Positions 5,516 through 5,706 of a stretch of DNA of 7,431 bases are shown one piece after another; position 1 is the stretch's first letter, and each line of letters opens with the position of its first letter. Made by a program: the position numbers and the translations under genes. Under the pieces are notes generated by a model, which had not been told where the DNA came from, made no database searches, and was given only the letters and a program-made list of their open reading frames with translations. Source of the DNA: Escherichia coli (GTDB taxonomy: Bacteria > Pseudomonadota > Gammaproteobacteria > Enterobacterales > Enterobacteriaceae); NCBI RefSeq assembly GCF_003334305.1, contig NZ_QOWS01000047.1; one strand, 5' to 3'.

Positions 5516-5706
5516 GTGATCCACTGGGGTTGCAGGGAGGGGAGCAGACTTACCGGTATGTGCCGAATCCTTTAAGATGGATAGATCCCTTAGGATTAAA
5601 TAAAGGAGCTTCATTATCTAAAATGATGAATAGCTCCAGTGATCTCATGGGGTTGAGAAGGCAGCCCCAGAACTTCTGGCGGCTATATCGCGGAAAAGAC
5701 ATTTAA
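5311..5706 (+). other. Frame-shifted 3' continuation of the Rhs gene (frame 1): conserved Rhs core end with two DPLGL motifs, then only ~34 codons before TAA at 5704-5706
   Basis: Frame 1 is open from 5311, just after a TAA at 5308-5310. It reads ...GQTSLWGLALSLPADTGYPDPRGELDPEADPGLLYAGQWRDAESGLCYNRFRYYEPESGMYLVSDPLGLQGGEQTYRYVPNPLRWIDPLGL, the typical end of an Rhs core. The upstream body is in frame 2, so a 1-bp deficit lies within about 5320-5328 (the ccggg run). Confidence 0.8.
5569..5598 (+). other. PxxxxDPxGL motif (PLRWIDPLGL) marking the Rhs core / C-terminal toxin boundary; an earlier DPLGL is at 5518-5532
   Basis: Frame-1 codons cct tta aga tgg ata gat ccc tta gga tta. Codon usage turns AT-rich from about 5560. 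Confidence 0.85.

Follow-up and report, generated by a model that had tools for sequence, protein, structure and literature searches.

A GC step near the 3' end of an Escherichia coli rhs gene and the boundary between its conserved core and its tip cassette

The 7,431 nucleotides of Escherichia coli DNA studied here (the window; contig NZ_QOWS01000047.1 of assembly GCF_003334305.1) carry a rhs gene in which G+C content (GC) falls abruptly close to the 3' end. We consider it very probable (about 90%) that this step is the boundary between a conserved, GC-rich core and an exchanged, AT-rich tip cassette in a gene for a PAAR-Rhs effector of the T6SS (type VI secretion system). The boundary, which is one of homology as well as composition, lies at 5570/5571, as placed by alignments of alleles and by a GC change point at 5565. 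Upstream of it, the rhs N-terminal region and conserved core (1190-5570; 60.3% GC) contain YD repeats and show identity with other alleles up to 5570. Downstream, a block of 33.4% GC extends from 5571 to 7105, where it meets an insertion sequence (IS). All features described below are on the strand shown (+), except the boundary, which has no strand.

A GC-rich core followed by AT-rich exchangeable tips is already known, both in Rhs genes generally and at this very locus; the step itself is a textbook Rhs property and adds no new biology. What we add is the placement of the boundary at the nucleotide level, evidence that the motif holding the catalytic Asp (the second DPLGL) travels with the cassette and not with the core, and the re-annotation of "hypothetical" open reading frames (ORFs) present in hundreds of E. 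coli genomes as a frameshifted toxin and a putative immunity gene.

Composition and homology at the end of the core

In a sliding profile, GC stays between 55 and 74% until about 5520, and between 23 and 46% from about 5580 to the end of the window. Under a two-segment maximum-likelihood model, the best single GC change point immediately follows base 5565; its 2-lnL support interval spans 5545-5580 and the log-likelihood gain is 188.7 (500 permutations gave 2.9 on average and 8.5 at most). An earlier examination of the letters of this stretch (the sequence-only reading) had announced a sharp switch within 5540-5620, and the support interval falls inside this range. Its three base counts proved exact when recounted (45 G or C of 60 nt at 5341-5400, 16 of 48 at 5599-5646, and 22 of 60 at 5701-5760), and the AT-rich codons it had pointed out at the PxxxxDPxGL motif are indeed present at 5569-5598 (cct tta aga tgg ata gat ccc tta gga tta). 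It had also described a drop from about 75%: the counts behind this figure hold, but 75% is a local peak within a core averaging 60.3%, and the mean step from the core to the downstream block is about 27 points, not about 40. Of the two 60-nt stretches flanking 5570, the left one has a GC of 60.0% and the right one of 28.3%. GC at third codon positions (GC3) goes from 0.80 at 5329-5568 to 0.30 at 5569-5651, so both checks that the sequence-only reading had proposed, sliding-window GC and codon usage, reveal a fall at the junction. The frame bearing the motif (the frame of 5503) differs from that of the long ORF at 1190-5515 because of a 1-bp deletion at 5326-5328.

The rhsA-D genes of strain K-12 were tried as a reference for the junction and discarded: in blastn searches, their 3' ends show no similarity to the core, with matches to the H-repeat only. 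They are thus of no use for locating the junction, and other alleles of the locus studied here served in their place. A megablast search of 4700-6000 against 5,426 complete E. coli genomes found the core in 2372 of them, and tips were surveyed in 60 rows evenly spaced down the ranking of these core-bearing genomes. The same tip occurs in 13 of the 60 rows, and approximately 42 (about 70%) align only to query positions 871-873, which correspond to 5570-5572 in the window. The rows ending there are annotated with other tips, either zincin-like metallopeptidase or restriction-endonuclease-fold toxins. Core identity to alleles with other tips exceeds 95% (95-98%) until 5570-5572, and there is none beyond. 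Similarly, six aligned alleles are near-identical until ...GTGCC(G/T)AATCC, after which they become unalignable. In E. coli W, which carries three tandem core 3' ends, two cease to match at 5570, and the alignment of the third (that of a zincin-like orphan) extends to 5597, across the semi-conserved motif. Similarity between alleles resumes only at 7106, the left end of the insertion sequence ISEc1. Since it ends at 5570-5572 and returns only at 7106, the 1,535 bp in between (5571-7105) are best described as an allele-specific cassette.

These comparisons agree with the sequence-only reading on several counts. It had taken the gene for a mosaic, and alleles of the same locus do share a core while carrying unrelated tips. 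The alignment it had suggested with other rhs alleles of the species shows sequence shared to 5570-5572 and unalignable after. It had put the junction just upstream of the second DPLGL, and homology ends 13 nt before the Asp codon of that motif. Its view that everything up to the IS is likely foreign cargo fits both the return of similarity at 7106 only and a GC of 33% in the block, against 51-53% in the chromosomal flank.

The boundary coincides with the Pro codon of PLRWIDPLGL, the PxxxxDPxGL motif that includes the second DPLGL (5569-5598); all but the first two bases of this motif are AT-rich cassette DNA. The first DPLGL, identified by translation at 5518-5532, lies in GC-rich core DNA. 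Between the two motifs is a spacer of 17 residues, QGGEQTYRYVPNPLRWI, and two DPLGL motifs 17 residues apart constitute the aspartyl autoprotease signature of Rhs proteins (PMC8636562). In a characterised Rhs protein, the Asp of the second DPLGL is the catalytic residue for C-terminal autocleavage (PMC8636562), and PxxxxDPxGL is known to demarcate variable tips (PMC3150448). The NCBIfam model TIGR03696 (Rhs_assc_core) matches amino acids (aa) 1409-1470 of the repaired protein and ends at the final Leu of the motif (nt 5598). With the core model ending at nt 5598 and the boundary at 5570/5571, the last nine residues of the core domain, second DPLGL included, are encoded by cassette DNA.

Each of the six aligned alleles has its own nucleotide version of the PxxxxDPxGL motif. 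W and OSU retain a GC-rich motif and their GC falls slightly further on; in the present allele, loss of homology and loss of GC coincide. Position 5570/5571 marks where shared homology ends, the 3' limit for crossovers, and not necessarily the site of a crossover; the model of Jackson et al. 2009 has new tips recombining at some point inside the shared core (PMC2935791). When the core was inspected for a cassette-linked haplotype or a crossover tract, single-nucleotide polymorphisms were scattered, with no clear tract. In strain S51, the core that bears the same tip is of the W-type haplotype over its last 100 nt, which implies exchange or conversion very near the boundary. An apparent second junction at 5606-5609 in strains JMF1 and GPEC1240 was rejected: it results from megablast extension through the semi-conserved motif, and divergence starts at 5571 there too.

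Tip exchange and competing explanations

The Rhs locus called "position 4" by Jackson et al. 2009, between nfrB and cusS, holds the sole clade IV rhs of E. coli (PMC2935791, Table 3), and the gene studied here is this position 4, clade IV rhs. It has in common with the gene of that study the site, a conserved core followed by a variable tip, a low-G+C trough extending downstream and, in the sister strains compared here, displaced ('dissociated') tips with core fragments. There is no difference in kind, and the present tip, its frameshifts and its frequency do not come from that paper, which documents C-terminal tip displacement at this very locus (PMC2935791). The G+C-rich conserved core and A+T-rich divergent core extension are a finding of the Hill laboratory (restated in PMC2935791). 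The RhsA-E elements of K-12 described by that laboratory share these two parts, as well as an association with ISEc1 (the H-repeat), with the present gene. They differ in belonging to another core clade (in blastn searches, the last 670 nt of the present core lack similarity to the rhsA-D 3' ends), and the present rhs, unlike them, is linked to vgrG and eagR and contains a PAAR-like region. The vgrGO1-eagR(DUF1795)-Rhs-CT modules of E. coli (Ma et al. 2017b, reviewed in PMC6730261, where the vgrGO1-eagR/DUF1795-rhs-ct architecture is described) have the same gene order and the same core. Alleles annotated with zincin-like metallopeptidase (MPTase4-type) or restriction-endonuclease-fold toxins share this core until 5570, but the tip found here belongs to a different, unannotated family. 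Finally, the CdiA-CT/CdiI systems, demarcated by VENN, also combine a conserved delivery part with toxin/immunity cassettes that vary from a short peptide motif onwards, with orphan modules downstream (PMC3150448), although protein family, secretion route and motif are all different.

The mechanism we favour is tip exchange. Upstream of 5570, the core, near-identical among strains, encodes the YD-repeat shell and the first DPLGL. The cassette (5571-7105) has its own PxxxxDPxGL autoprotease/cleavage motif, a 133-aa toxin domain, a putative immunity gene and the remnants of an older toxin/immunity pair. New tips would arrive with a stretch of core, recombine homologously into the resident core and push the previous tip downstream, where the displaced tip would then decay (PMC2935791). 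Such an exchange should leave a sharp discontinuity of homology and GC at the first non-shared base, and the AT-rich composition would mark the cassette pool as distinct from both core and chromosome. In an intact allele such as that of S51, EagR would stabilise the PAAR-Rhs protein, which would be loaded onto VgrG (PMC8636562, PMC6730261). This protein would house the tip inside its YD-repeat shell, cut itself after the second DPLGL and set the toxin free in the target cell, while the 95-aa protein encoded downstream would shield the producer and its kin. In the present stretch, to judge by the reading frames, the system is dead as a weapon, its core put out of frame by one deletion and its toxin cut in two by another; the immunity ORF is intact.

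The composition of the core lends some support to the reverse account, in which the GC-rich core would be foreign and the AT-rich downstream DNA native. With 60.3% GC and a GC3 of 0.69-0.80, the core is above its chromosomal surroundings (51-53% GC in the flank; GC3 of 0.55-0.62 in chromosomal cusS, nfrA and ybcH); moreover, the 3' ends of the K-12 rhs genes lack similarity to it, and the whole vgrG-rhs island is presumably absent between nfrB and cusS in K-12. The host, however, is E. coli, not a low-GC organism, and the flank, at 51-53% GC, is far from the genome-wide value of about one-third that would have made the core the anomaly. The block is 18 points below the flank and the core only 9 above it, and the block varies between strains whereas the core is conserved. 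Core and cassette both deviate from the chromosome, the cassette more so. Flank composition and allele comparison together refute a foreign core as the sole explanation, which we regard as very unlikely; it survives in a weak form, as the core is atypical too.

Selection acting in place on toxin/immunity genes might also lower GC without any exchange of DNA, through AT-rich codons ensuring low expression, H-NS silencing or amino-acid composition. Many species have AT-rich toxin/immunity modules, and the fall in GC here extends to codon positions 1 and 2, so amino-acid composition contributes to the step. This explanation nevertheless appears extremely unlikely in view of the fall of GC3 from 0.80 to 0.30 within 30 nt, of the unrelated, unalignable sequences that other strains carry from exactly the same base, and of the joining of the same cassette to a core of different 3' haplotype in S51. 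As for an artefact of sequencing or assembly, or a junction created by an IS, the occurrence of three 1-bp deletions in homopolymers within 1.4 kb could point to sequencing error, and an IS is located 1.5 kb downstream. Yet the same arrangement is found, with at least 99% identity, in 529-584 independent complete genomes, the deletions are common to 49 (core) and about 538 (toxin) genomes from many laboratories, and similarity to the IS begins only at 7106. Recurrence across genomes refutes such an origin, to which we give practically no credence.

Recurrence is also what led us to reject sequencing error as the source of the deletions. Those in the core and the toxin recur in tens to hundreds of independent genomes and are therefore inherited mutations, not read errors; the third, in an A run, is present in all three genomes checked at that site.

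The disrupted effector, its toxin domain and its immunity gene

The domain content of the rhs product corresponds to a T6SS-associated Rhs protein. YD repeats are found in nine stretches (TIGR01643, YD_repeat_2x; E-value 7.2e-70). A PAAR-like stretch at aa 263-305 matches NF033420 (T6SS_PAAR_dom; E-value 4.7e-11) over profile positions 53-94 only, with 42.7 bits for a curated cut-off of 124. Near the N-terminus, an AARLGDEIQH stretch (1349-1378; Rhs aa 54-63) is followed by a hydrophobic segment (aa 64-110). We take this stretch to resemble the prePAAR motif and, together with the hydrophobic segment, to fit the class of Eag-chaperoned transmembrane-domain effectors.

Membership in the Rhs gene family is not in doubt, but the copy studied here is a pseudogene. 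Its core is frameshifted at 5326-5328, where a G run has lost 1 bp: the run reads GGG here, versus GGGG or GGGA in all other alleles examined, and the long ORF (1190-5515) leaves the Rhs frame at this point to end in a wrong-frame tail. This deletion is common to 49 of 2332 core-bearing genomes. In strain RM9513, for example, the core is intact and a 1505-aa protein with a truncated tail is encoded (WP_202851500.1). Here, the reading frame of a functional effector is interrupted both at 5326-5328 and, within the toxin, at 5649-5652, and the gene is annotated as a pseudogene.

The toxin domain (5599-5999) comprises 133 aa once repaired. It is currently split into a 35-aa tail running to a stop codon at 5704-5706 and an ORF at 5739-5999 annotated as an '86-aa hypothetical protein' (WP_000889443.1), which lies in a second frame open from about 5637 to 5999. 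According to run lengths, the split is due to a 1-bp deletion in a G run at 5649-5652, with four G residues (G4) instead of the five (G5) of intact alleles. We repaired the domain by adding one G to this run, thereby joining the two frames. The resulting 133-aa sequence is colinear across the join with proteins of many bacteria and metagenomes; full-length homologues match with 92-99% query coverage and 55-71% identity, and 11 aligned homologues show 52-70% identity. In addition, S51 carries the same toxin sequence as the C-terminus of an intact Rhs of 1603 aa (WP_224065153.1). The 86-aa "hypothetical protein" is thus best read as the rear two-thirds of a frameshifted Rhs toxin domain. Programmed -1 frameshifting at the G run was considered and rejected, as ATG GGG TTG does not correspond to an X XXY YYZ slippery sequence and intact G5 alleles are ordinary ORFs.

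The cassette is present in 584 of the 5,426 complete E. coli genomes, with at least 99% identity in 570. When a 73-nt probe spanning the run was used, G5 was found in 20 of 558 cassette genomes, the others aligning with a 1-base gap; the toxin is inactivated in about 96% of the genomes carrying this tip. Strain FCI51 displays G5 on an otherwise A7-like background (A7 being the strain whose chromosome matches the window, as described below).

Neither the toxin sequence nor, in Pfam, any of 12 family members yielded a match, the toxin itself having been searched against Pfam, NCBIfam and PDB sequences. An AlphaFold (AF2) model built from a 12-sequence alignment reached a predicted local distance difference test (pLDDT) score of 84.6. 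In Foldseek searches with this model, family members were found fused to RHS, DUF4280, LysM, FN3, S-type pyocin and WXG100 carriers, and more distant matches included Tox-MPTase4 and ImmA/IrrE proteins (E-value of about 1e-4). The family is unannotated, and its predicted fold appears weakly zincin-like. The motif HExxH defines the Tox-MPTase4 family. Here, the corresponding invariant motif is EEFLHGTQ, in which Glu replaces the first His of HExxH in all 12 sequences, and a further invariant signature is ETHVKDFM. Because the motif is EEFLHGTQ and not HExxH, membership of the toxin in a known metallopeptidase family is not established, and the toxin differs in this respect, as in its lack of a Pfam match, from Tox-MPTase4 and other zincin-like toxins. 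As to its distribution, the family is widespread, with members in Proteobacteria, Bacteroidota and metagenomes.

A bolder proposal, which we make tentatively and consider doubtful, is that the 133-aa tip represents an uncharacterised polymorphic-toxin family with the signature EEFLHGTQ...ETHVKDFM..H, found in Rhs, DUF4280/PAAR-like, LysM, pyocin-S, WXG100 and MuF-type fusions. It would have a zincin-like fold, with a chemistry or target that may differ from those of known MPTase toxins, given the Glu in place of the first His of HExxH; about 96% of its E. coli carriers would be disarmed while keeping immunity. If this is true, loss of one G (G5 to G4) with retention of the immunity gene would be a natural case of evolution towards being disarmed but still immune. 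Still less likely is the idea that short G tracts act as reversible on/off switches, which the G5 of FCI51 could evoke. In any event, this unannotated toxin family could merit a small experimental study.

The putative cognate immunity gene (5999-6286; 95 aa; WP_001021476.1) has a start codon overlapping the toxin stop codon (GTGATGA), and its ORF is intact in the present stretch. Toxin homologues encoded on two unrelated metagenome contigs (the contexts of P0005 and P0040) are followed by ORFs of 91-93 aa, one of which is homologous to the 95-aa protein (BLASTP E-value 3e-7; 27% identity over 88 aa). Position and homology suggest that the 95-aa ORF is the immunity gene of the toxin. A metagenome contig (L017, 617-3873) carries a toxin homologue amid small toxin/immunity-like genes (Tsi6, EndoU_bacteria), beside an rve-type integrase fragment, and resembles a typical orphan-cassette island.

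Decayed cargo, ISEc1 and the surrounding genes

Downstream of the immunity gene, the cargo consists mostly of decayed material. An open frame at 6282-6572, devoid of a start codon and of any core piece, corresponds to an orphan toxin 3' fragment. It shows 44% identity over 54 aa to the toxin tail of E. coli W (tblastn E-value 1e-8), and nucleotide identity at 6313-6385 is 82%. The similarity concerns the middle of the fragment and the HExxH region of the zincin-like W tip, the motif being degraded to HEVKN here. We take the fragment to be what is left of an earlier tip. Next comes a putative orphan immunity-like gene (6577-7052; 158 aa when intact), frameshifted by the loss of one A from a run of eight (A8 to A7) at 6712-6718. 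Once reconstructed, its product has an intact E. coli counterpart of 158 aa (P0121; 339 member sequences), which it matches with 96% identity and 100% coverage, and it also matches proteins of about 156 aa from Enterobacter, Kosakonia and Cronobacter. For the immunity protein and the orphans, searches of Pfam, NCBIfam and PDB sequences returned nothing, the only match being that of DcrB to the chaperone. The cargo has therefore largely decayed, as toxin and orphan immunity gene are frameshifted and the second toxin is only a fragment.

Displaced tips with core fragments lie downstream of the main gene in strains W, A17, S51, OSU and GPEC1240; within the present stretch, only the tip remnant without a core piece remains. 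In S51, what comes after the whole block equivalent to 5571-7105 is a displaced zincin-like orphan accompanied by a core fragment of 2 kb, with ISEc1 beyond it. This 3.1-kb orphan module of S51 and A17 (core fragment, zincin-like tip and immunity gene; S51 L016, 6992-10124) is absent here, and the AT-rich block directly adjoins the ISEc1 end (7105/7106), which suggests a deletion abutting the IS.

The left end of ISEc1 (ISAs1 family, 'H-repeat') occupies 7106-7431 and is clipped by the window end, with a transposase start at 7243 or 7251. From 7106, it is 91-97% identical to the H-repeat copies of K-12 (97% to the yhhI copy), and it matches the ISEc1 copies of other alleles with 91-97% identity as well. 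The 60 aa of transposase present match NF033564 (transpos_ISAs1; E-value 1e-8). A repeat search found no terminal inverted repeats for ISEc1.

The window as a whole matches, with 100% identity, the chromosome of E. coli strain A7 (NZ_CP028767.1), in which the gene order is cusR-cusS, vgrG, a DcrB/DUF1795 gene, rhs (annotated "frameshifted"), two small hypothetical genes, ISEc1 and nfrB-nfrA. According to the annotated neighbours in A7, WL164, RM9513 and others, the vgrG-eagR-rhs island sits between cusS and nfrB. Both profile matches and the A7 annotation support the linkage of vgrG and an Eag/DUF1795 chaperone gene upstream of rhs. The 3' part of vgrG (7-681), clipped by the window start, encodes a T6SS spike protein (NCBIfam TIGR03361, VI_Rhs_Vgr, E-value 1.9e-51; VgrG in the A7 annotation). 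It is followed by an EagR-type chaperone gene of the DUF1795/DcrB family (709-1170), which matches Pfam PF08786 (DcrB) over its full length (E-value 4e-26) and is annotated as a 'DcrB-related protein' in A7. Outside the window, the 736-bp gap between cusS and vgrG (L001, 2145-2880) has a GC of 31.7% and forms an AT-rich left edge of the island.
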